Assembly: GCA_036517395.1 (NCBI GenBank)
Contig: DATDWN010000016.1
Span: 11,262-75,261 of the forward strand
DNA: 64,000 nucleotides
Reading direction: 5' to 3'
From: Minisyncoccota bacterium
GTDB taxonomy: Bacteria; Patescibacteriota; Minisyncoccia; Phycocordibacterales; DATDWN01
In this document: positions 6,549 to 64,000 of the stretch, piece by piece
Position numbering within the stretch: position 1 is the stretch's first letter
Layout of the letters: each line of letters begins with the position of its first letter
The notes under the pieces: generated by a model
The model's database searches: none
What the model was told of the DNA's origin: nothing
What the model saw: only the letters and a program-made list of their open reading frames with translations
Program-made: the position numbers and the translations under genes

Positions 6549-6941
6549 ATGTACTGCGAACATTGTGGAACAAAAATAGATAAGTCACATAAATTCTGTA
6601 CTAAATGTGGAAATGCAACTGACCCTGCACAAGTAAAGGCCACCGTGACACAACATCCTGTATTAGCACTTAATGACAAGTGGTGGCACCGACTCCTAAA
6701 AGTTTTATATATCATTGTATATTTTCCGTTGTTAGGTATTGTTCCAATGGTTTGGAGTTCAAATGTTCCATATTGCTATGCTTCTTATTCATGCTATGGC
6801 TCATATAGCGAGGCTTTTTGGTACTCAGTTCTCACTTTGGTTATTTATGTAGTGACAATTAGATTAATCAAGATTGCTGTTATATATGTGGCTTTTGGTC
6901 GAAAAGCTGAATGGAAAAAGGAGTTTAAGAAACCTTTCTAA
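6549..6941 (+). CDS. zinc-ribbon domain membrane protein
   Basis: N-terminal 'CEHCG...FCTKCG' followed by TM helices. Confidence 0.55.
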   Translation: MYCEHCGTKIDKSHKFCTKCGNATDPAQVKATVTQHPVLALNDKWWHRLLKVLYIIVYFPLLGIVPMVWSSNVPYCYASYSCYGSYSEAFWYSVLTLVIYVVTIRLIKIAVIYVAFGRKAEWKKEFKKPF

Positions 6942-6945
6942 ATTT

Positions 6946-7410
6946 ATGATCATTTTTGGTTGGGGATTTCAGACAATTAAAAACTTTGGTCCGGCTTTTA
7001 AGAACCTTTGTAGTCATTGTAATAATGAACAGTACTGGGTTCTGACGAGGATCATGACATGGTTTACATTATTTTTTATTCCGATATTTCCATATGAAAT
7101 TACATATCGCCTATCATGTCCTGTATGCAAATATGGACTTACATTAAACCAGAAGCAAGTCAGTGAGATAAAACCGCTTGCTGAGTTAAATCAACTACTT
7201 GTTGAAGGCCAAATCACTCAAGAAGAATATCAAGTTCGGCTAAATCGACTCAATGATGGACCTTCTGAACCAATTGAAGCAGAAATTGTAGAAACTAAGG
7301 CTTTAACTGAAAATGTATCCAGCCTGAGCTACTGTGCAAGCTGTGGGGGCAAGGTTACAGAAGAATTAAGGTTTTGTGGAAATTGTGGAACTCCTACTAC
7401 AACAAAATAA
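6946..7410 (+). CDS. membrane protein with C-terminal zinc ribbon
   Basis: ATG at 6946 directly after the previous stop (the track ORF starting at 6874 overlaps in another frame). C-terminal 'YCASCGG...FCGNCG'. Confidence 0.5.
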   Translation: MIIFGWGFQTIKNFGPAFKNLCSHCNNEQYWVLTRIMTWFTLFFIPIFPYEITYRLSCPVCKYGLTLNQKQVSEIKPLAELNQLLVEGQITQEEYQVRLNRLNDGPSEPIEAEIVETKALTENVSSLSYCASCGGKVTEELRFCGNCGTPTTTK

Positions 7411-7413
7411 TTT

Positions 7414-8361
7414 ATGTTTTGCAAAAATTGTGGCAATGAAATAAAACAAGGAATTAAATTTTGCACTAAATGTGGAAAAGAAAGTTTGCCTATCCAAATC
7501 CCTATTAAAACTAAGTATAAAATACTGTTAAAAAACAAACTGAAGAAATTTCATCAGTTTTTAACAAAGAAAAAATTGATTATTGGGTGGGTCACACTTA
7601 CCATCCTAGTTCTAGGTGCATACTTTATATATACAAAAGGAAAACATAAGATACCGACAGCTGATCAAATACAGAAAGATATTGCGTCTGTTGTTGTAAA
7701 TATCTATTGCGAAGGATCCAATGGGTGGGATGACGAAACTCAAATATCTGGTGGCTCAGGTACTATTATTACTACTGATGGTCTTGTACTTACAAATGCA
7801 CATATAATTCCGCAAGGTAAAGACGAAAGCCTTTACGATAAAAGTTGTTTAGTAAGCCTTCCCGATCCAACAACAGGAGCTTCAAAGGAAATATATTATG
7901 CGAGACCTATTGTGGTCCCAGATATAAGTGAGAAATATGACCTCGCTTTCCTACAAATAGATGATGTTTATTATGATGAAGCAGAAGATAAATTTTATGG
8001 TGAATACCCTAAAGTATTTCCTGCGTATGATGATGAAAAATATTGTAAGGCAGAGGATGTAAAGCTTGGTGAACCAGTTAGAATATATGGTTACCCTGCA
8101 ATAAGTGGTGGATATGCACTCACTATTACTGACGGTATAGTTAGTAGTCTACTCCCAAAATCTGGATACATTATAACTTCTGCAAAAATTAGTCATGGAA
8201 ATTCTGGTGGTCTTGCAGTTGATCAATATGGGTGCAGAATTGGAGTACCATCAATGGTTAGCGGTGATGATTATGAGAGTTTAGGGGTCATCATTTCAAA
8301 CAATCTTATATATGATTTCACGGAGGAAATAAGAACCATATTAAATACTACAGACAACTAA
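7414..8361 (+). CDS. zinc-ribbon + TM + trypsin-like (S1) serine protease domain protein
   Basis: N-terminal 'CKNCG...FCTKCG', TM, 'TDGLVLTNAHI' (His) and 'GNSGG' (Ser) S1 motifs. Confidence 0.65.
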   Translation: MFCKNCGNEIKQGIKFCTKCGKESLPIQIPIKTKYKILLKNKLKKFHQFLTKKKLIIGWVTLTILVLGAYFIYTKGKHKIPTADQIQKDIASVVVNIYCEGSNGWDDETQISGGSGTIITTDGLVLTNAHIIPQGKDESLYDKSCLVSLPDPTTGASKEIYYARPIVVPDISEKYDLAFLQIDDVYYDEAEDKFYGEYPKVFPAYDDEKYCKAEDVKLGEPVRIYGYPAISGGYALTITDGIVSSLLPKSGYIITSAKISHGNSGGLAVDQYGCRIGVPSMVSGDDYESLGVIISNNLIYDFTEEIRTILNTTDN

Positions 8362-21425: not shown

Positions 21426-21520
21426 AGCTTTATTATATTGGAAATTATAAATTAAGTCATTGAAAATTGACTGAAAATTGGAAATTGTAAATTGAAAATT
21501 CCAATAGTGTTTGGTACACT

Positions 21521-22810
21521 ATGGCTATGCTAGATATAAAATTCATAAGGGAAAACAAAGATCTTATTTCTGCTGGAGCTCTAAAAAAGCACATCCAGTT
21601 TGATGTGGAAGCACTTCTCAAACTTGATGACAAGCGTCGTGAGCTTATGACTTCTATCGAGCAGAAGAGGGCCGAACAAAATGAAGTTAGTGAGAAAATA
21701 GTCAAAATCTCTGACAAGGCTGAAAAAGAGCAAATGATAGCCGAGATGAAGTTGGTCAAGGACGAGTTGCAAAAAGAAGAAGAGGAGCTGAAAACGGTTA
21801 TGCACGACTGGCAGGTACTGATGGTAGCTGTGCCAAACATACCCGATATATCCGTGCCTGATGGTGTGGACGACAAAGACAATAAAGAGCTTAAACGATG
21901 GTCTCTTTTTGGGGGCGATATTCCAAAGTTCGATTTCACACCGAAAGACCATATCGAGCTTATGCAAAATCTCGGCATACTCGACATCGAGCGTGGGGTA
22001 AAAGTGGCGGGCTTTCGAGGGTACTTTCTCAGAGGCGATGGCGCAAGACTGCAGTTTGCCTTGTGGAGATTTGTCGAGGATTTCTTTTCCAAAAAGGAAG
22101 GCTTTGTGCCGATGATTGCTCCTACGCTTTTAAAAAGAGAAACTTTTATGGGTACTGGCTATATTCCGCAGGGCGAGGAGGATTTGTATAAAACTCAAGA
22201 TGGCGAATATCTGGCGGGTACGGCCGAAGTCGGAATGATGGGCTACTACATGGATGAAGTTTTGCAAAAAAAAGATTTGCCAATAAAAATGCTTGGATTC
22301 TCTTCTTCTTTTCGTCGTGAGGCCGGAAGTCATGGCAAGGACACTCGGGGTATTTTGCGTGTGCACGAGTTTTATAAATTTGAACAAGTTGTTTTGTGCG
22401 AAGCTTCACACGCCGAGTCAGTAAAATATCATGAGGAAATACAGCGCAATACAGAGGAGATTACGGAGGCTTTGGGTTTGCCATATCACGTCGTAGCGAA
22501 TTGTGGAGGGGATCTCGGGTTGGGACAGGTCAAAAAATATGATATCGAAGTCTGGCTTCCATCGGAAAATACGTATCGCGAGACAGGCTCGGCTTCTTAC
22601 TTTCACGATTTTCAGACTCGTCGCTTAAACATCCGCTACAAAGATGACGACGGCAAAATGAAGTTTGCTCACTCGCTAAACAATACCGCTCTTTCTGGTA
22701 GGCCACTTATTATGATTGTAGAAAACGGACAGCAGGCTGATGGTTCGATAAAAATTCCAAAAGTGCTTCAGCCGTACATGAACGGTCAAACAACTATTTC
22801 AAGGAAATAG
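21521..22810 (+). CDS. serS: seryl-tRNA synthetase
   Basis: N-terminal coiled coil and class II motifs ('FRREAGSHGKDTRGILRVHEF', 'GRPLIMIVENGQ'). Confidence 0.9.
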   Translation: MAMLDIKFIRENKDLISAGALKKHIQFDVEALLKLDDKRRELMTSIEQKRAEQNEVSEKIVKISDKAEKEQMIAEMKLVKDELQKEEEELKTVMHDWQVLMVAVPNIPDISVPDGVDDKDNKELKRWSLFGGDIPKFDFTPKDHIELMQNLGILDIERGVKVAGFRGYFLRGDGARLQFALWRFVEDFFSKKEGFVPMIAPTLLKRETFMGTGYIPQGEEDLYKTQDGEYLAGTAEVGMMGYYMDEVLQKKDLPIKMLGFSSSFRREAGSHGKDTRGILRVHEFYKFEQVVLCEASHAESVKYHEEIQRNTEEITEALGLPYHVVANCGGDLGLGQVKKYDIEVWLPSENTYRETGSASYFHDFQTRRLNIRYKDDDGKMKFAHSLNNTALSGRPLIMIVENGQQADGSIKIPKVLQPYMNGQTTISRK

Positions 22811-22888
22811 TTGTAATTTAGACTTTTTAATTTAGAATTTAAAAATTAAGTCTAAATTCTAAATTTTAAATTAAAAATTTACTACCTT
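22811..22888. repeat. AT-rich palindromic repeat (family D) 5' of the ftsQ-like gene
   Basis: AATTTAGACTTTTTAATTTAGAATTTAAAAATTAAGTCTAAATTCTAAATTTTAAATT; a similar copy lies at 23792-23875. Confidence 0.65.
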
Positions 22889-23791
22889 ATGATTTCCTCA
22901 ACTTCGTCATCACTCTCTCACGAGGTATACCTGAGAAAAAAGAGAAACAAAAAACTTTTTCGGTATGGGTTAATTATTTTTATCATCGTAGCTCTCGTCG
23001 CTCTTGTTTCTTATGTTTCTCACAGACCACAGATTCGTATATCAAAGGTTGAACTTTCTGGAGGTGTTTTGGTTACAGAGACCGATGTCGATGCCAAATC
23101 CCGAGAGTATTTGTCCGGCTCGTATCTCTGGCTTTTCCCAAAGAACAACACTTTTTGGTATTCCGAGGGAGGCCTAGCGGACTATCTCAAGGAAAGTTTT
23201 AAAAGAATTGACACCATAAGTATTCACAGAAAAGATCTGAAAACTTTGGTGGTGGAAATAAAAGAACGCAAACCAGTAGCCATGTGGTGCGAAGGTAATC
23301 CAGGAGAAGTGCGACCAAGCTTGAATGCTGGGTCAGAAGTGCAACCGAGCGGGAGCGAGGGCGTACTGAGCTCAGCAGAGCGAACGTGCTATTTCCTAGA
23401 CCAGAATTCAACCATTTTTGCCAAAGCCCCAAACTTCTCGGGTGATGCCTATTTCAAATTTTATGGTTCGATTTCCGGAAACAATCCAATCGGCACGGAA
23501 TATATAGCAAGTAGCACAGAGTTCGCCGAGCTTTCTGATTTTATAATAAAGACAAAACAACTTTCACTTCGGCCTCAATATATGATTGCAAAAGATGGCG
23601 GGGAATTTAGTCTAGTTATTGCCGGTGGCGGACAGATTATGTTTGATATGCGCTTGCCCTTAGCAACTGTTGCTCAAAATCTTGAAGCGCTTTTGCGTAC
23701 ACAAGTATTGGCTACTAGCACAAGCGGAGTTCTCCCTGTCGAGTATATTGATCTGAGATATGGAAATAAGCTATTTTACAAAATAAAATAG
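22889..23791 (+). CDS. FtsQ/DivIB-like cell division protein (TM + POTRA)
   Basis: N-terminal TM, POTRA-like 'IRISKVELSGGVLVTETDV', beta domain. Confidence 0.55.
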   Translation: MISSTSSSLSHEVYLRKKRNKKLFRYGLIIFIIVALVALVSYVSHRPQIRISKVELSGGVLVTETDVDAKSREYLSGSYLWLFPKNNTFWYSEGGLADYLKESFKRIDTISIHRKDLKTLVVEIKERKPVAMWCEGNPGEVRPSLNAGSEVQPSGSEGVLSSAERTCYFLDQNSTIFAKAPNFSGDAYFKFYGSISGNNPIGTEYIASSTEFAELSDFIIKTKQLSLRPQYMIAKDGGEFSLVIAGGGQIMFDMRLPLATVAQNLEALLRTQVLATSTSGVLPVEYIDLRYGNKLFYKIK

Positions 23792-23875
23792 CAATTTAAA
23801 ATTTAGACTTTAAAATTTAAAAATTAACTATAAATTCTAAAGTCTAAATTTTAAATTTATAATGTTGAACTTCTC
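23792..23875. repeat. AT-rich palindromic repeat (family D) 3' of the ftsQ-like gene / 5' of dus
   Basis: Direct near-repeat of 22811-22888. Confidence 0.65.
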
Positions 23876-38716: not shown

Positions 38717-38804
38717 AATTTACAATTATCAATTTACAATTTCCAATCAATTCTCAATGTTCCAATGATTCAATTTGAAAATTGAGAACTGAAAATTGAA
38801 AATT
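38717..38804. repeat. ~88-bp AT-rich repeat (family D) abutting the apbE ATG
   Basis: ...CAATTCTCAATGTTCCAATGATTCAATTTGAAAATTGAGAACTGAAAATTGAAAATT-ATG; ~95% identical to 41342-41430. Confidence 0.75.
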
Positions 38805-41341: not shown

Positions 41342-41430
41342 GAATTTTCAATTATCAATTTACAATTTTCAATCAATTCTCAATGTTCCAATGATTCAAT
41401 TTGAAAATTGAGAACTGAAAATTGAAAATT
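41342..41430. repeat. ~88-bp AT-rich repeat (family D) abutting the msrA ATG
   Basis: Near-identical to 38717-38804. Confidence 0.75.
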
Positions 41431-58270: not shown

Positions 58271-59668
58271 ATGAATAATCGAAATATTAAAAAAGTAATA
58301 TCTAAATTCCCGGATTCTCCTGGGGTGTATATTTTCCTTGGCTCGCCGAAACGTAGTGGAGGCGGCAAGTCCAAAAGTGAAATTCTTTACATAGGCAAAG
58401 CCACATCCCTCCGTGACCGAGTTAGAACTTACATGTCAAGGACAGTCCTTGACACTCGAAGTCCACTCATAGCTAAGATGCTGGAGGAGTTTGAAGATAT
58501 CGAATACATAAAAACAGATTCTGTTTTGGAAGCACTTGTTTTGGAAGCCAATCTCATAAAAAAACACCAGCCGGAAGCAAATATAAAAGAAAAAGATAAT
58601 AAAAGTTTTAACTTTGTTGTGATTACCAAAGAAGATTTTCCTCGTGTTTTAGTTATCCGCGGTCGTGAACTGCTGCAATCGCGCATTATGTCAAGGACGC
58701 CCCTTGCCAAAAATTCAAAAATGGCAAAGGGCGTCTTTGACATTAAAAATCAGTTCGGTCCATTTCCAAACGGCGGACAGCTGAAGGAAGCACTGAAAAT
58801 AATTCGCAAGATGTTTCCGTATCGGGATAAGTGTAATTCTGCGGAAGTCCGACTTCCGCAGAAAACGTATTCAGGGAAGCGACCGAGCGGGAACGATGGG
58901 AGTACTGAGGCCAACAGGCCGAATGTAGCCTGTTTTAATCGTCAGATAGGTTTGTGTCCAGGAGTTTGTACAGGAGAAATTACAAAAGAGGATTATCAGA
59001 AACAAATCCAAAATATTATTTTGTTTTTTCGGGGTAATAAAAAGCGATTGCTGAAAAACCTTGAGAAACAAATGCGAGGTTTCGCAAAAAATCGAGAGTT
59101 TGAGAAAGCCGGCGAAGCTAAAAAAACAATTTTTCTTCTAAAACATATTCAGGATATATCGCTTATAAAAGAAGATTGCAAAGGTTCGACCTTAAAGAAT
59201 GGTGCCCAAGGTCGAACCTTGGATTCAGAGACATTCCGAATCGAATCTTATGATGTCGCACACATGTCTGGACAAAATGTTGTTGGGGTTATGATTGTTG
59301 TCGAGGATGGTGAAGTGAAGAAGTCTGATTATAGGAAGTTCAAAATAAAAAACAATCCAAGTGTAAACGATACTAAAGCCTTGACAGAAGTACTGTCGAG
59401 AAGGTTGGCACATATAGAATGGCGATTTCCTGATTTGATTGTTGTCGATGGAGGGACGGCGCAAAAGAGAGTGATGGAAAAGATTTTGCGGGAGAATAAA
59501 GTGAATATTCCCGTTGTTTCTGTTGTCAAAGATGAGAGACATAAACCGAAGAATATACTAGGTGACAGACAGTGGTTAAAATATGAGAGAGAAATAATTC
59601 TAGCAAACAGCGAATCACATAGATTTGCTATTGGATATCATAGAAAGCTCAGAGGGAAGTTTGGATAA
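58271..59668 (+). CDS. uvrC: excinuclease ABC subunit C (short form, lacks C-terminal HhH)
   Basis: GIY-YIG 'GVYIF...ILYIGKATSLRDRV', UvrBC-binding 'LLKNLEKQMRGFAKNREFEKAGEAKK', RNaseH-like endonuclease domain. ATG at 58271 preferred over the track start. Confidence 0.85.
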   Translation: MNNRNIKKVISKFPDSPGVYIFLGSPKRSGGGKSKSEILYIGKATSLRDRVRTYMSRTVLDTRSPLIAKMLEEFEDIEYIKTDSVLEALVLEANLIKKHQPEANIKEKDNKSFNFVVITKEDFPRVLVIRGRELLQSRIMSRTPLAKNSKMAKGVFDIKNQFGPFPNGGQLKEALKIIRKMFPYRDKCNSAEVRLPQKTYSGKRPSGNDGSTEANRPNVACFNRQIGLCPGVCTGEITKEDYQKQIQNIILFFRGNKKRLLKNLEKQMRGFAKNREFEKAGEAKKTIFLLKHIQDISLIKEDCKGSTLKNGAQGRTLDSETFRIESYDVAHMSGQNVVGVMIVVEDGEVKKSDYRKFKIKNNPSVNDTKALTEVLSRRLAHIEWRFPDLIVVDGGTAQKRVMEKILRENKVNIPVVSVVKDERHKPKNILGDRQWLKYEREIILANSESHRFAIGYHRKLRGKFG

Positions 59669-59771
59669 TTTCAAATTTCAAAATCCAAATTTCCAATCAG
59701 TATCAAAGAATCAAATGTCAAAGTTTTGGATTTCGATATTTGGATTTGGTTTGACATTGGAAGTTTAGGTT

Positions 59772-60938: not shown

Positions 60939-61202
60939 ATGAATACAAACAAGCAAAAACTTATTCGTCGGTTGAAGATAGTGGAAGGTCAGGTTCGTGG
61001 ATTGCAGGACATGCTTTCCAAAGACGCATACTGTATTGATGTTATTACTCAAACATCCGCTGTAAAACAGGCGCTCTCTGGTATTGAAGACGCTATAATG
61101 GAAAGTCACTTGAGTACATGTGTTGTGCCTCAAATAAAAAAAGGCAAAGGCGAGGCATCAGTCAAGGAAATATTAAAAGTTTATCGGCTAAAACGAAAAT
61201 AG
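60939..61202 (+). CDS. csoR: CsoR/RcnR-family copper-sensing transcriptional repressor
   Basis: '[16 protein letters not shown]...[16 protein letters not shown]' with Cys/His ligands. Confidence 0.85.
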
Positions 61203-61203
61203 T

Positions 61204-63489
61204 ATGGCATTCACTTCAGTATATAAAATAAATGGCATGCACTGCGCTTCGTGCGCTGGTATCATAGAAAAGATTTTTAGAAAAACAGATGGTGTCGTGT
61301 CAGTAGATGTGAATTATGGAACTGAGAGCGCCAGACTGTCATTTGATAACACAAAAACTAATCCGGCAGAACTTTCAAGGCAAATCGAAAAACTTGGCTA
61401 CTCCTTGGTTTTGCCCAACAAAGAATCAAAACGGGAAAAATTATCTGAATTGAAATCTATGCGAAACAAGGTTTTTTCCGCTATGCCTCTGGCTGTTATA
61501 AGCGTTGTTATCATGGGTTGGGATATTTTTTCTAGGTTTGGTCTTGTTCCAGAGATGTCATATTTTTGGCAAAACATTTTTCAATATCTGCTTCCACTGA
61601 TGGCCATCGCTACATTTGTTATCCTCGGTAAACCATATTTGCTCGGAGTATATCGTTTTCTACGTTATGGCAGGGCGAACATGGACACGCTCATAGGCAT
61701 AGGCACATCCGTCGCTTTTCTCTACAGTTCTGTCGTCACGGTTTTTGGAGAAAGTCTAAAAGCATTTATAAATACTCAAAGCACATATTTTGATGTTACC
61801 ATTATCGTTATTACTTTCATTGCTCTTGGAAAGTATCTTGAGGCACGGTCAAAATTGAAAACAGGAGATGCTATAGAAAAACTTTTGAACCTTCAAGCCA
61901 AAACAGCGCTAGTGGTCCGTGATGGCAAAGAAATTGAAATCTCAGTTGACCAAGTGGTGCATGGTGATTTGATTGTGGTAAAACCTGGGAGCGCTATTCC
62001 TGTTGATGGTATTTTGACCAAAGGGTCTTCGTATATAGATGAATCAATGATTACAGGTGAGCCGATGCCAGTGGCTAAAAAAGTTGGTGATGCTGTGGTT
62101 TCTGGCACGATAAATACGACGGGTTCATTTATTTTTGAAGCTACAAAAATCGGTTCGGAAACTATACTGTCTCGAATTATAAAAATGGTAGAAGAGGCGC
62201 AAGGGAGCAAGGCGCCTATCCAAGCACTGGCTGATAAAATCTCTAGTATTTTTGTGCCGGTGGTTTTAGTTTTGTCTTTTGTGGCTCTGGGATTGTGGCT
62301 TGTTATTGGCACGCAGTATCTCGGTTTTTCTCAAGCACTCTCTTTCGGTCTGGTTTCTTTTGTCGGTATTCTCGTCATCGCCTGTCCATGCGCATTGGGA
62401 CTTGCAACTCCCACGGCTATTATTGTCGGTGTTGGTAAGGGAGCAAGAGAAGGTATACTAATAAAAGATGCGGGGACTCTAGAAAAACTTGGCAAAGTAA
62501 ATGTGGTTGTGGTGGACAAGACGGGAACGCTAACACGAGGAAAACCCGAACTTGTCTCTATTAAAAATTTTTCTAACAAAAAAGACGCAGAATTAATTTC
62601 AATCCTTGCTTCACTTGAAAATAAATCAGAACACCCCATCGCTCACGCAGTTGTCTCTTATGCAATTGAAAATAAAATCGGTTTAACTGCTCTGGATACT
62701 TTTGAGGCGATTAAAGGCAAGGGTGTCAAAGGGGTTGTTGAAAATACGGAATATTATGCGGGCAACACTAAACTTGTAAAAGATCTCAGACTTCATTTTG
62801 ATAGCACGGGGAATGAGAAAGAAACGCTAGAAGGGAAAACTCCTGTTATTTTGACAACAAAAGAAAAAGTTCTCGGGGTTTTTATGATAGCAGATAGCAT
62901 TAAACCGGAGGCTGTAGAAGCGGTAAAAAATCTGCATAAACTGGGCATAAAAGTTGTCATGCTTACTGGGGATGATAGAAATACTGCCACATTTATTGCA
63001 AGGCAGGTTGATATAGACGAAGTTGTTGCGGAGGTCATGCCAGAGGACAAACTTAGGATAATAAAGGAATTACAGGAAGGAAGATTTGAAAATTGGAAAT
63101 TGGAAATTGGAAATTCCAACCGAAGGTTGGTGGTGGCCATGGCTGGGGATGGAGTGAACGATGCACCAGCTCTGGCACAGGCCGATGTCGGTATTGCTAT
63201 GGCTACGGGGACAGATGTGGCTATTGAGAGCGCCGGCATTACTCTGCTTCATGGTGATATTTCTAAACTAGTCAAGGCTATAAATCTGTCAAAAATAACA
63301 ATGCGAGGCATAAGACAAAATCTGTTCTGGGCTTTCTTTTACAATATTATTGGTATCCCACTTGCTGGTGGCTTGTTTTATCCAATTTTTGGCTGGATGC
63401 TCTCACCCGTGTTTGCTGGGTTTGCCATGGCCATGTCTAGCGTCTCGGTGGTTAGCAATTCATTAAGGTTAAAAACTAAAAAATTATAA
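61204..63489 (+). CDS. copA: copper-translocating P-type ATPase
   Basis: N-terminal HMA 'GMHCASCAG', 'CPC' ([11 protein letters not shown]), 'DKTGTLT', '[10 protein letters not shown]'. Contains an in-frame (GAAATTG)n insertion at 63088-63117. Confidence 0.9.
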
Positions 63490-63493
63490 AACT

Positions 63494-64000
63494 ATGAAAA
63501 CATATACATTTCATGTCCAAGGTATGCATTGTCACGCTTGTATTTTATTGACGGAAAGTGAACTCGAGGAAGTATCCTATGTCACAAAGGCAAAATCTAG
63601 TTTGAGTAATCACACTGTCGAGATTCTGGGTGAGTTTGGTGACAAATCACAAGATATGATTGCAGAGGAACTGTCGCAAGTCCTTATTAAGCATGGATAT
63701 TCTCTGTCGGTTGAGCGGGAGGAGAAAATAAAAAATTGGTCTGATTTTAAAATCGCTATACCTATAGCACTAGGCTTTGCGGTTTTGTTTGTAGTTTTGC
63801 AGAAAATCGGTTTAGTTAATCTGGTTGGCACAAACAGCGTCTCGTACGGCACAGCATTTGTTATTGGTATCATCGCATCGCTTTCTACATGTATGGCTGT
63901 GGTGGGAGGACTTTTGCTTTCTATGTCGGCAACATTTGCCAGAGAAGGGGATAAAGTTAAACCACAAATTCTTTTTCATGTTGGTCGTATCATTTCTTTC
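63494..64000 (+). CDS. HMA-domain membrane protein (partial, runs off window); CcdA/DsbD-like permease core likely
   Basis: 'GMHCHAC' HMA motif, then TM helices with 'SLSTCMAVVGG'. Confidence 0.45.
   Translation, partial: MKTYTFHVQGMHCHACILLTESELEEVSYVTKAKSSLSNHTVEILGEFGDKSQDMIAEELSQVLIKHGYSLSVEREEKIKNWSDFKIAIPIALGFAVLFVVLQKIGLVNLVGTNSVSYGTAFVIGIIASLSTCMAVVGGLLLSMSATFAREGDKVKPQILFHVGRIISF

Follow-up and report, generated by a model that had tools for sequence, protein, structure and literature searches.

Rickettsia palindromic elements (RPEs) are short repeats that lie in frame in many, often essential, genes and are compatible with folding of the host protein (Ogata et al. 2000, as cited in PMC10969869). 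The same source describes palindromes of ~100-150 bp that encode a family-specific conserved peptide and occur in Rickettsia only (PMC10969869). We analysed a 64,000-nucleotide stretch of a Minisyncoccota genome (contig DATDWN010000016.1; hereafter the window), in which copA, a gene for a P-type copper ATPase, contains an in-frame array of GGAAATT-type heptamers shortly before the codons for its GDGVND motif. We lean, without great confidence, towards the view that this insert, translated and tolerated, is one copy of a selfish-like heptamer-array element that is dispersed and spreads by short-patch recombination.

The heptamer element resembles RPEs in several ways. Both are short repeats without coding capacity of their own that lie in frame in many unrelated genes, are translated, and are compatible with the host fold. 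Both are also found in non-coding DNA, are absent from close orthologues, and have no known transposase; like an RPE, the copA insert sits in a tolerant region that is probably surface exposed. Unlike RPEs, the copA insert is 42 nt long and is built around a 28-nt direct array with a locus-specific stem, in a Paceibacterota host. Related arrays occur in many classes of Patescibacteria and in other phyla, the element has moved between alleles on a recombination patch, and its synonymous sites are frozen.

The term STRR (short tandemly repeated repetitive heptanucleotides, from cyanobacteria) occurs in PMC2858038. Like STRRs, the arrays described here are dispersed tandem heptanucleotides with multiple copies and several unit families per genome, both kinds of repeat can lie in genes of structural RNAs (STRRs in that of RNase P RNA, the GGAAATT element in that of 23S rRNA), and neither has a known function. 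Cyanobacterial STRRs, including those within RNase P RNA, are said to have been reported by Mazel and colleagues in 1990 and by Vioque in 1997. STRR units differ from ours (e.g., CCCCAAT) and have been described mainly from intergenic DNA of heterocystous cyanobacteria, whereas the GGAAATT unit has mainly Patescibacteria as hosts. To our knowledge, in-frame residence in housekeeping genes, a size of 3-4 units and an adjacent stem-loop lie outside the description of STRRs.

DNA uptake sequences (the DNA uptake sequence of Neisseria, DUS, and the uptake signal sequence of Pasteurellaceae, USS) are single 9-12-mers that are specific to a lineage and present about once per kb. The heptamer element is like them in being a nucleotide-level, frame-independent sequence that lies in variable parts of proteins, in both orientations, and in inverted intergenic pairs. 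It shares with them a patchy, mosaic distribution and spread via transformation and recombination, uptake being only proposed for the heptamer element. Unlike uptake sequences, it is a tandem array, is shared across phyla, and occurs about once per 10 kb or less. The window holds at least eight heptamer arrays in 64 kb (~1 per 7 kb, loose variants only). The element does not fall fully within the definition of RPEs, STRRs or uptake sequences.

Two further kinds of repeat are relevant. Phase-variable contingency loci, such as the heptanucleotide tracts of Haemophilus (PMC8262952), share with the copA tract a tandem unit that is not a multiple of three and a location inside coding sequence (or, for contingency loci, a promoter). 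Their copy number varies between and within strains, whereas the copA tract has four units in every copy seen and array lengths have no decaying tail. REP/BIME elements and prokaryotic MITEs are sometimes intragenic, as in-frame fusions (PMC10969869), and like the heptamer element are small, non-autonomous, hairpin-forming and often intergenic. In the copA copy, by contrast, we saw neither terminal inverted repeats that are conserved nor short duplications of the target, and the stem beside the array varies by locus.

We found that the copA array is the core of an insertion in the phosphorylation (P) domain of the protein. The letters at 63088-63117 are GAAAATTGGAAATTGGAAATTGGAAATTCC. Four units, GAAAATT GGAAATT GGAAATT GGAAATT, occupy 63088..63115 on the + strand, and Tandem Repeats Finder reports 63086-63115 (period 7, 4.3 copies, 95% matches) as the top-scoring heptamer array in the window. 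The array is in frame within a 761-aa open reading frame (ORF; 61204-63489, +) and encodes residues F628 to 639, after LQEGR; in this frame (GGAAATT)3 translates as GNWKLEI. Aligned with this protein, the solved Legionella CopA (3RFU) lacks exactly 14 residues, between its ..SELKD and its KGLIVAMAGDG, and this gap defines a 14-codon (42-nt) insertion, G626-N639, at 63079..63120 (+), the edges being ambiguous by a few bases. The solved P/N-domain chains of A. fulgidus CopB (3SKY/3SKX) have a 15-residue gap at this site. According to the 3RFU alignment, the insertion precedes GDGVND in the loop that joins a P-domain helix to the strand leading into GDGxND. Judged from these alignments, this is a true insertion, absent from solved CopAs and from 90% of the closest homologues. 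The first-pass annotation of this DNA had proposed a heptamer repeat at 63088-63117 that adds about 13 residues in frame before GDGxND. The exact letters and Tandem Repeats Finder agree with it, the CopA ORF is otherwise intact, and the length was right to within one residue.

The host gene (61204..63489, +) is intact, as its ORF, family models and motifs show. Its product scores above the NCBIfam cut-offs for TIGR01511 (580 bits; cut-off 397) and TIGR01525 (622 bits; cut-off 346) and has the Pfam domains HMA, E1-E2_ATPase and Hydrolase. The motifs GMHCASC (residue 11), TGE (284), CPC (394), DKTGT (438), SEHP (475), MLTGD (586) and GDGVND (648) were all found. By family models and signature motifs, the protein is a Cu(I)-type P1B ATPase (CopA).

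We found that the insert is shared by a minority of CopA proteins that do not form a clade. Among the best 120 homologues (67-76% identity), 108 have the short form LQxxGK-IVAMAGDG. In a protein search, a 45-aa query spanning the insert yielded no candidate that could be scored. Eleven others, 67-78% identical, have a homologous insert at the same codon (e.g., FENWNLKIGNSSHK; 2 of the 11 inserts are longer), so that there are 12 insert-bearers with the window copy. Identities and trees were calculated from 720 well-aligned columns with the insert region removed. The insert-bearing protein P0002 shares 91% identity with P0018 and P0021, which have no insert, and no more than 78% with any of the other insert-bearers. 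On average, insert-bearers are 0.748 identical to each other and 0.753 identical to the rest, and they were united in 0/100 bootstrap neighbour-joining trees. In this sequence comparison the insert-bearing alleles are not monophyletic; four of them (P0031, P0071, P0072 and P0108) form a sub-group apparently related vertically.

One pair of alleles indicates how the insert may move. The sole length difference between the insert-bearing gene L006 and the insert-free gene L008 is 42 nt. The two are 0.84 identical overall and 0.78-0.93 identical in 45-nt windows on either side of the array, and identity is 0.57 and 0.46 in the two windows between -45 and +45 nt around the array. Within -45 to +45 nt, L006 is 0.93 identical to the insert-bearing gene L009, and elsewhere only 0.69. 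The donor-like tract runs from ~45 nt upstream of the array to its 3' edge, a patch of ~80-90 nt. As read from these alignments, the L006 insert arrived by short-patch homologous recombination between diverged copA alleles. Transfer of the cassette into diverged alleles in this way would make the insert-bearers polyphyletic.

The same distribution is also what would be seen if a hairpin-targeting mobile element had repeatedly struck the same copA codon, the uniform core of the insert then marking a recent arrival. Two observations made on copA speak against such independent, site-specific insertions. The resolved case is a recombination patch with ~45 nt of donor flank, not a bare insertion. 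In addition, all 12 insert-bearers share three flanking protein states: a hydrophobic residue at 619, the spacing LQxG, and [RK][LM]V downstream. These states are consistent with a single origin followed by patch transfer, and also with packing of the translated loop on the preceding helix. The first of them is the most marked. At position 619 (codon I619, 63058..63060, +), which is part of the helix before the insert, 105/108 insert-free homologues have K and 12/12 insert-bearers have V, I, L, T or A (Fisher p = 4e-14; 120 homologues). The insert is probably translated and tolerated as an extra loop, to judge from a frame that is always kept, the lack of stops, and the apparent co-adaptation of this neighbouring residue.

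The bases of the insert are far more uniform than its surroundings. We compared the DNA of the window copA, nine other insert-bearing genes (ten in all) and one insert-free neighbour. An 11-codon core, TTT NNA AAT TGG AAA TTG RAA ATT GGA AAT TCC, is common to 10/10 insert-bearing genes; in the window it is TTT GAA AAT TGG AAA TTG GAA ATT GGA AAT TCC (63085..63117, +; F628-S638). Among pairs of genes with the same amino acid, the same codon was used in 302/310 cases in the core (0.974; 158 expected from amino-acid-specific rates) and in 0.42 of cases in the rest of the gene. The core ranks 1st of 708 sliding windows. Its edges are abrupt, each falling between single codons (alignment columns 709/710 and 720/721), and the codons next to it, 5' and 3', show only background agreement. 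Within the core, Ser is TCC in 9/9 cases, Gly is GGA in 8/8 and Leu is TTG in 8/9. Codon bias cannot explain this uniformity because the gene-wide same-codon rates are only 0.35 for S, 0.32 for G and 0.27 for L. Outside the core, a single codon is used in only 1.7% of the columns with an invariant degenerate amino acid. Recent arrival does not explain it either, because the flanks of most pairs of insert-bearers have diverged like the rest of the gene.

Amino-acid replacements within the core are confined to the two variable bases of NNAAATT, and in L010 the peptide is radically altered, to ENSKFKFTNS, with the AAATT periodicity retained. The nucleotide pattern, not the peptide, is therefore conserved, and the preserved entity would be a DNA (or RNA) sequence. 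Either a transmission bias or a bound factor may be what keeps these bases.

These data bear on the possibility that the insert is an adaptive protein loop, selected for a role of its peptide in CopA (regulation or a protein contact), with the DNA repeat incidental. The peptide is similar across the 12 alleles, the neighbouring helix residue co-varies with it, and WKLEI-GN has a strand-turn pattern when read by eye. Selection on a protein does not freeze synonymous sites, however, the same peptide written in scrambled codons was found in 0/10 orthologues, and the same array occurs on either strand in dozens of unrelated proteins and in rRNA (below). The AlphaFold2 model of CopA (58 sequences; mean predicted local distance difference test score, pLDDT, 72) places the insert between helix 613-625 and strand 644-648 as a low-confidence coil, with pLDDT <50 at residues 633-639. 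We make no structural claim from this model because it is too weak in the insert region. On these grounds an adaptive loop seems very unlikely.

The site itself appears to accept extra residues of many kinds. Among the best 150 representatives at 50% identity, retrieved with a 105-aa P-domain fragment, 123 have canonical spacing at the insert site and 25 have longer loops. Of the longer loops, 24 are of unrelated composition and one (P0248, LEIENLDIKNLLKIENLKIENS) is seemingly heptamer-derived. The 24/150 P1B ATPases with unrelated loops indicate that the site is a general indel-tolerant loop.

A short stem-loop, CCAACC-GAA-GGTTGG (63116..63130, +), abuts the array. Across the ten orthologues, pairing is kept in 91.7% of the cells of this stem; changes in both arms were found in five cells, a number reached by 1/500 shuffles. 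Variants of the stem include CCAATC/GATTGG, CCAGCC/GGCTGG and CCAGC/GCTGG, and in one form, ACAATCAT/ATGATTGT, the stem is shifted by 2 nt. Folded as DNA, the window copy has a stem of -5 kcal/mol (z = -0.4), no more stable than shuffled sequence.

Frozen synonymous sites with sharp edges, amino-acid changes that spare the AAATT core, and stem pairing kept through compensatory changes are all properties that a host-useful nucleic-acid signal might have. This is the main rival to a selfish-like element. In this explanation the array and stem-loop are a selected site of DNA or RNA binding or processing, and the peptide is a by-product. The site might bind a nucleoid protein or a protein of recombination, might mark DNA for uptake or as a recombination hotspot, or might serve in the pausing or processing of RNA. 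Several results at copA argue against it. We found no intrinsic terminator or promoter at 63085-63130 on either strand in a scan of 62800-63600, and Rfam covariance models gave only chance-level matches (E above 3) in 62800-63400. The insert is missing from 90% of close CopA homologues, and the density of arrays is far under that of known uptake sequences. We consider a host-useful signal unlikely, and return to it below with the arrays of other genes.

The copA insert is related to repeats between genes of the window. Allowing up to 2 mismatches, we counted its two-unit motif 14 times in the window (1.9 expected), a count that 0/100 shuffles reached. Arrays of at least four NNAAATT units outside copA are at 21433-21505, 22815-22882, 23793-23874, 38717-38804, 41343-41430 and 59664-59691, and all are intergenic. 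The copA sequence 63087-63120 matches the intergenic sequence 21472-21505 at 31/34 bases, with 0 such matches expected by chance. This intergenic copy of the module (21472..21528, +) consists of GAAAATT GGAAATT GTAAATT GAAAATT followed by a stem-loop, CCAATAGTG..CACTATGG, read by eye; this stem-loop overlaps the gene at 21521 at its start codon. The repeated intergenic units GAAAATT, GTAAATT and CTAAATT contain stop codons, whereas GGAAATT is stop-free in all six frames and is presumably for this reason the variant found in genes. No further arrays were found within 5 kb of copA in the ~70 kb flanking other insert-bearing genes. Because those genomes have no arrays near copA, the copA copy does not depend on the intergenic family of the window genome, or at least is no simple derivative of it.

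Two of the intergenic arrays are near-identical palindromes of ~90 nt. The first, (AATTTNC)4 ... (GNAAATT)4 at 38717..38804 (+), was detected by Tandem Repeats Finder, array scan and folding, and its predicted RNA fold has -19.6 kcal/mol (z = -2.5). The second, found by Tandem Repeats Finder and array scan, is at 41343..41430 (+). The right arm of each stops 0-3 nt short of the start codon of the next gene. A third copy, L001:15792-15880, shares both arms and has a different centre. AT-rich palindromic arrays of the AATTTAG/CTAAATT type (22815-22882 and 23793-23874) flank the gene at 22889-23791, and the array at 59664-59691 is just upstream of a D-Ala-D-Ala ligase gene. The presence of array-plus-hairpin modules just upstream of start codons in the window is a further point in favour of a host-useful signal.

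Among assembled sequences, we found no variation in the number of units in the copA insert. All 10 insert-bearing copA genes read as DNA have four units. The flank-to-flank spacing is 57 nt (four units) in 5/5 contigs of the window species (L001-L005), an identical CopA protein is encoded on 12 contigs from several samples, and one further metagenome copA allele (L143) also has four units. The window species, a Candidatus Paceibacterota bacterium, is one of those sampled in metagenomes of the Rifle aquifer. Among these assembled sequences, no other unit number was seen.

The constancy in unit number bears directly on what the first-pass annotation had made of the repeat. Its observation that the insert shares a motif with the AT-rich intergenic repeats of the window is borne out by the 31/34 match. 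From this it had proposed that an intergenic unit expanded inside the gene, and had suggested looking for phase-variation-like changes in length. As an explanation, this would be a recent slipped-strand expansion into a length-variable tract. The perfect tandem array fits this explanation, and the gene would go out of frame with one unit more or less, as happens at classical contingency loci. The explanation is contradicted by the common insertion codon of alleles with identities of only 67-78%, by four units in all assembled copies (nine orthologues besides the window gene), and by array lengths that peak at 3-4 units across genomes. The annotation had also pointed to orthologues with an equal-length loop of unrelated composition as evidence that would count against a repeat expansion. 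Such loops do occur in distant P1B ATPases (24/150); among close orthologues there is either no loop or the same repeat-encoded one. Slippage expansion is largely refuted, and we give it hardly any weight. The copA insert is not a slippage-prone microsatellite; in practical terms, the gene is intact and the repeat is not a switch.

To describe the wider family, we scanned for exact (GGAAATT)3, with one genome per species. The scan gave at least 120 loci, vs 0.3-1.6 expected by chance, and 124 arrays were listed. By record titles, ~64 of the 120 listed loci are from Patescibacteria of many classes. The others are labelled Nitrospirae, Bacteroidota, Planctomycetota, Acidobacteriota, cyanobacterium (L075, filamentous) and others, and such labels may err. 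None of the 124 listed arrays is at the copA site.

Many of the arrays lie within genes. Frames open for at least 40 codons on both sides contain 79 of the 124 listed arrays (64%), compared with 72% for random positions in the same loci, and thus coding DNA is not avoided. The listed host genes span more than 25 housekeeping families, including MnmA, Fmt, PolA exonuclease, LigA, IleRS, LepA, MurC, TsaD, SufC, Pth and TopA. Among the matches listed, LeuRS carries an array at one site in four genomes and at a second site in three. Alignments with the solved proteins indicate that the LepA and LeuRS arrays are insertions or loop replacements. The sense strand reads AATTTCC, with the peptide ..ISNFQFPIS.., in 64 of the 79 listed open-frame arrays and is the opposite in 15 (p = 2e-8). 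The copA array has the minority orientation. This strand bias relative to host genes is again in favour of a host-useful signal. On the other side, no one position-specific role suits unrelated essential genes, rRNA loops and intergenic palindromes alike.

Array lengths in the wider family are narrowly distributed. Among the listed arrays (at least 3 units), the perfect-unit count is 4 in 62, 3 in 58, 5 in three and 6 in one, with no geometric decay. This peak at 3-4 units indicates a discrete element rather than a slippage continuum. A degenerate extra unit lies 5' of the listed arrays, with its ATT conserved at 78-91%.

Stem-loops are enriched beside the arrays. For 21% of the listed arrays, vs 4.7% of random positions, a perfect stem of 6 bp or more begins no further than 8 nt from the 3' end. 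Perfect stems of 8 bp or more abut 9.8% of the listed arrays and 0.8% of random positions. In LepA (L059), alignment to Aquifex LepA (2YWE) places both arms of an 11-bp stem on presumed host codons. In IleRS (L040), both arms of an 11-bp stem presumably fall on host codons as well, by comparison with the IleRS consensus. Among the matches listed, intergenic copies are frequently palindromes of the form array-hairpin-inverted array. At six loci (L066, L076, L084, L104, L106 and L109), a conserved stem-loop, AGCGTTCACGGAACGCT or AACCGTTCACGGTT, directly adjoins the arrays; the genomes are labelled 'bacterium', 'uncultured bacterium', Nitrospirae or Deltaproteobacteria. The AGCGTTCACGGAACGCT-type stem-loop looks like a lineage-specific, REP-like partner of the array.

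We also found arrays inside 23S rRNA genes. (GGAAATT)4 arrays are at L125:5082-5109, at L139:~589-616 and 1568-1595, and at L145:715-745, and L157, L138 and L105 likewise have arrays within 23S rRNA genes. Covariance-model alignment of L145 shows a ~125-nt insert in a helix loop (positions 1206-1226 of the Rfam large subunit, LSU, model). In four genomes the layout is alike: native sequence, hairpin, arrays, second hairpin, native sequence. The order within the insert is CCAGTGC-TAT-GCACTGG, (AAATCCN)n, an AT-rich segment, (GGAAATT)4, and CCAGCGC-GTA-GCGCTGG. This layout recurs at a second 23S site, where the hairpins are CCGTGC-ATA-GCACGG and CCGCGC-TGT-GCGCGG. This layout looks like a duplicated target stem-loop or a palindromic extension of the helix. 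Copies in 23S rRNA indicate that the element lives at the level of nucleic acid, independent of any peptide. Residence of the array-plus-hairpin module in rRNA helices is also compatible with a host-useful signal.

The 23S copies bear again on independent insertions. They lie between two diverged copies of a target hairpin, an arrangement that resembles a target duplication of 15-17 nt. The recurrence of arrays at the same LeuRS sites in several genomes and the enrichment of stems beside arrays point in the same direction. In copA, stem-loop and flanks have diverged to background, so the inserts there are old, in conflict with a frozen core that merely reflects recent arrival. Taken with the flanking states common to all insert-bearers and the donor flank of L006, this makes repeated site-specific insertion quite unlikely for copA.

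We return to the explanation that we favour, a selfish-like element spread by short-patch recombination. The element would consist of about four GGAAATT-type heptamers (28 nt), usually abutting a short stem-loop. On the P domain, the copA copy would form a loop at the surface, with the helix that ends in ..IKELQ before it and the strand LVVAMAGDG after it. The element could persist and spread as selfish or driven DNA, being stop-free in six frames and lodged in indel-tolerant loops, and it could move between alleles by short-patch recombination, plausibly after DNA uptake.

Several points weigh against this explanation. Transposase, terminal inverted repeats and target duplication were not definable for the copA copy, so that mobility in the strict sense is only a possibility. 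The recombinant patch was resolved at the DNA level in one case only. Conservation as strict as that of the core is seen in functional sites more often than in junk; a host function is therefore possible. The lack of arrays within 5 kb of other copA genes means that any genome-wide drive, such as that of an uptake signal, would act at low density. The scan of other genomes was seeded with the exact motif, and how special GGAAATT is among heptamers is not measurable from it. The covariation of the stem comes from only 10 sequences and the stem is weak, so that conserved pairing is suggestive only. Finally, 'surface loop' is a description taken from the 3RFU alignment, the AlphaFold model being poor at this point.

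A broader claim can be made about the family as a whole, and we make it tentatively, as a possibility rather than an expectation. The arrays may be an undescribed, cross-phylum family of ~28-nt, hairpin-associated repeats in essential genes and 23S helices, fixed in their bases and spread by patches. In that case they might represent a novel, hairpin-targeting type of mobile or driven DNA, or else be the first signal for uptake or recombination to be recognised in Patescibacteria. In the literature searched, we found no match to the DNA and peptide strings of the element and no description of heptamer arrays in Patescibacteria.

The copA insert exposes a widespread class of element, undescribed in the literature searched, whose mechanism we infer. 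The genomes of Patescibacteria are tiny and are regarded as streamlined. A non-coding repeat apparently lives inside their essential genes (aminoacyl-tRNA synthetases, LepA, Mur ligases, the copper pump) and in 23S rRNA. If this is true, it is a second independent case of 'selfish DNA inside proteins', known so far mainly from Rickettsia. The arrays would also be markers for recombination between diverged lineages in unculturable organisms, and a defined sequence with which uptake, recombination or protein binding could be tested in transformable Patescibacteria. They would, in addition, account for odd low-complexity peptides (ISNFQFPIS, GNWKLEI) and spurious short ORFs in annotations of candidate phyla radiation (CPR) genomes.

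Among the matches listed from a protein search with (GNWKLEI)x6, all were short hypothetical ORFs (32-74 aa) and none pointed to a host family. At least 120 listed metagenome 'hypothetical proteins' (P0121-P0240; 274 at E <= 10) are largely translated GNWKLEI repeats. They probably arose when long, stop-free and presumably intergenic heptamer arrays were wrongly called as genes.

Other heptamers accompany GGAAATT. The array-bearing loci L017-L136 contain 68 more heptamer arrays with other units in 848 kb, approximately one per 12 kb, the units including AAAATTG, AATCCGC, AAATTAG, AAATCCC, ACGCCCC and others. Many coding inserts fuse GGAAATT arrays with arrays of the GGGATTT or GGAATTT type and encode peptides such as NKIPNSKSQIPN.

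Three other accounts of the copA locus were considered and set aside. An internal start at M646 was dismissed because this Met is part of the AM motif before GDG and is invariant in all 120 close homologues. Programmed frameshifting at the insert was dismissed for the absence of a slippery X XXY YYZ site. An assembly artefact was dismissed since the array is shorter than a read, the insert was recovered by several assemblers, including in long-read metagenome-assembled genomes (MAGs), and the flanks are co-adapted.

The genes around copA provide an operon context. Directly upstream is a csoR/RicR-type copper repressor gene (60939..61202, +; Pfam Trns_repr_metal), which matches NCBIfam RicR with E = 1.4e-19, under the cut-off of that model. 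Genes for an HMA/DsbD_2 protein and a cupredoxin follow copA.

Y1 enzymes act on DNA hairpins. The contig of one insert-bearer, P0007, contains a gene for an IS200/IS605-type Y1 transposase (PF01797) at 6818-7468, ~3 kb downstream of copA. The copA insert of P0007 is longer (18 residues), and its proximity to the Y1 gene may be a coincidence.

The CopA homologues P0002-P0120 also have short, repeat-like inserts at other variable sites, after residues 72, 457 and 533 of P0001. Their peptides include AHSTGSGPS, VRSSNSGPSAHSSDSGS, PVRGREGLQRGFTSNG, AGKGRTLEISERFDL and LKSGFSRSNL. The recurrence of these peptides suggests that further families of translated repeat elements are present in Paceibacterota genes.

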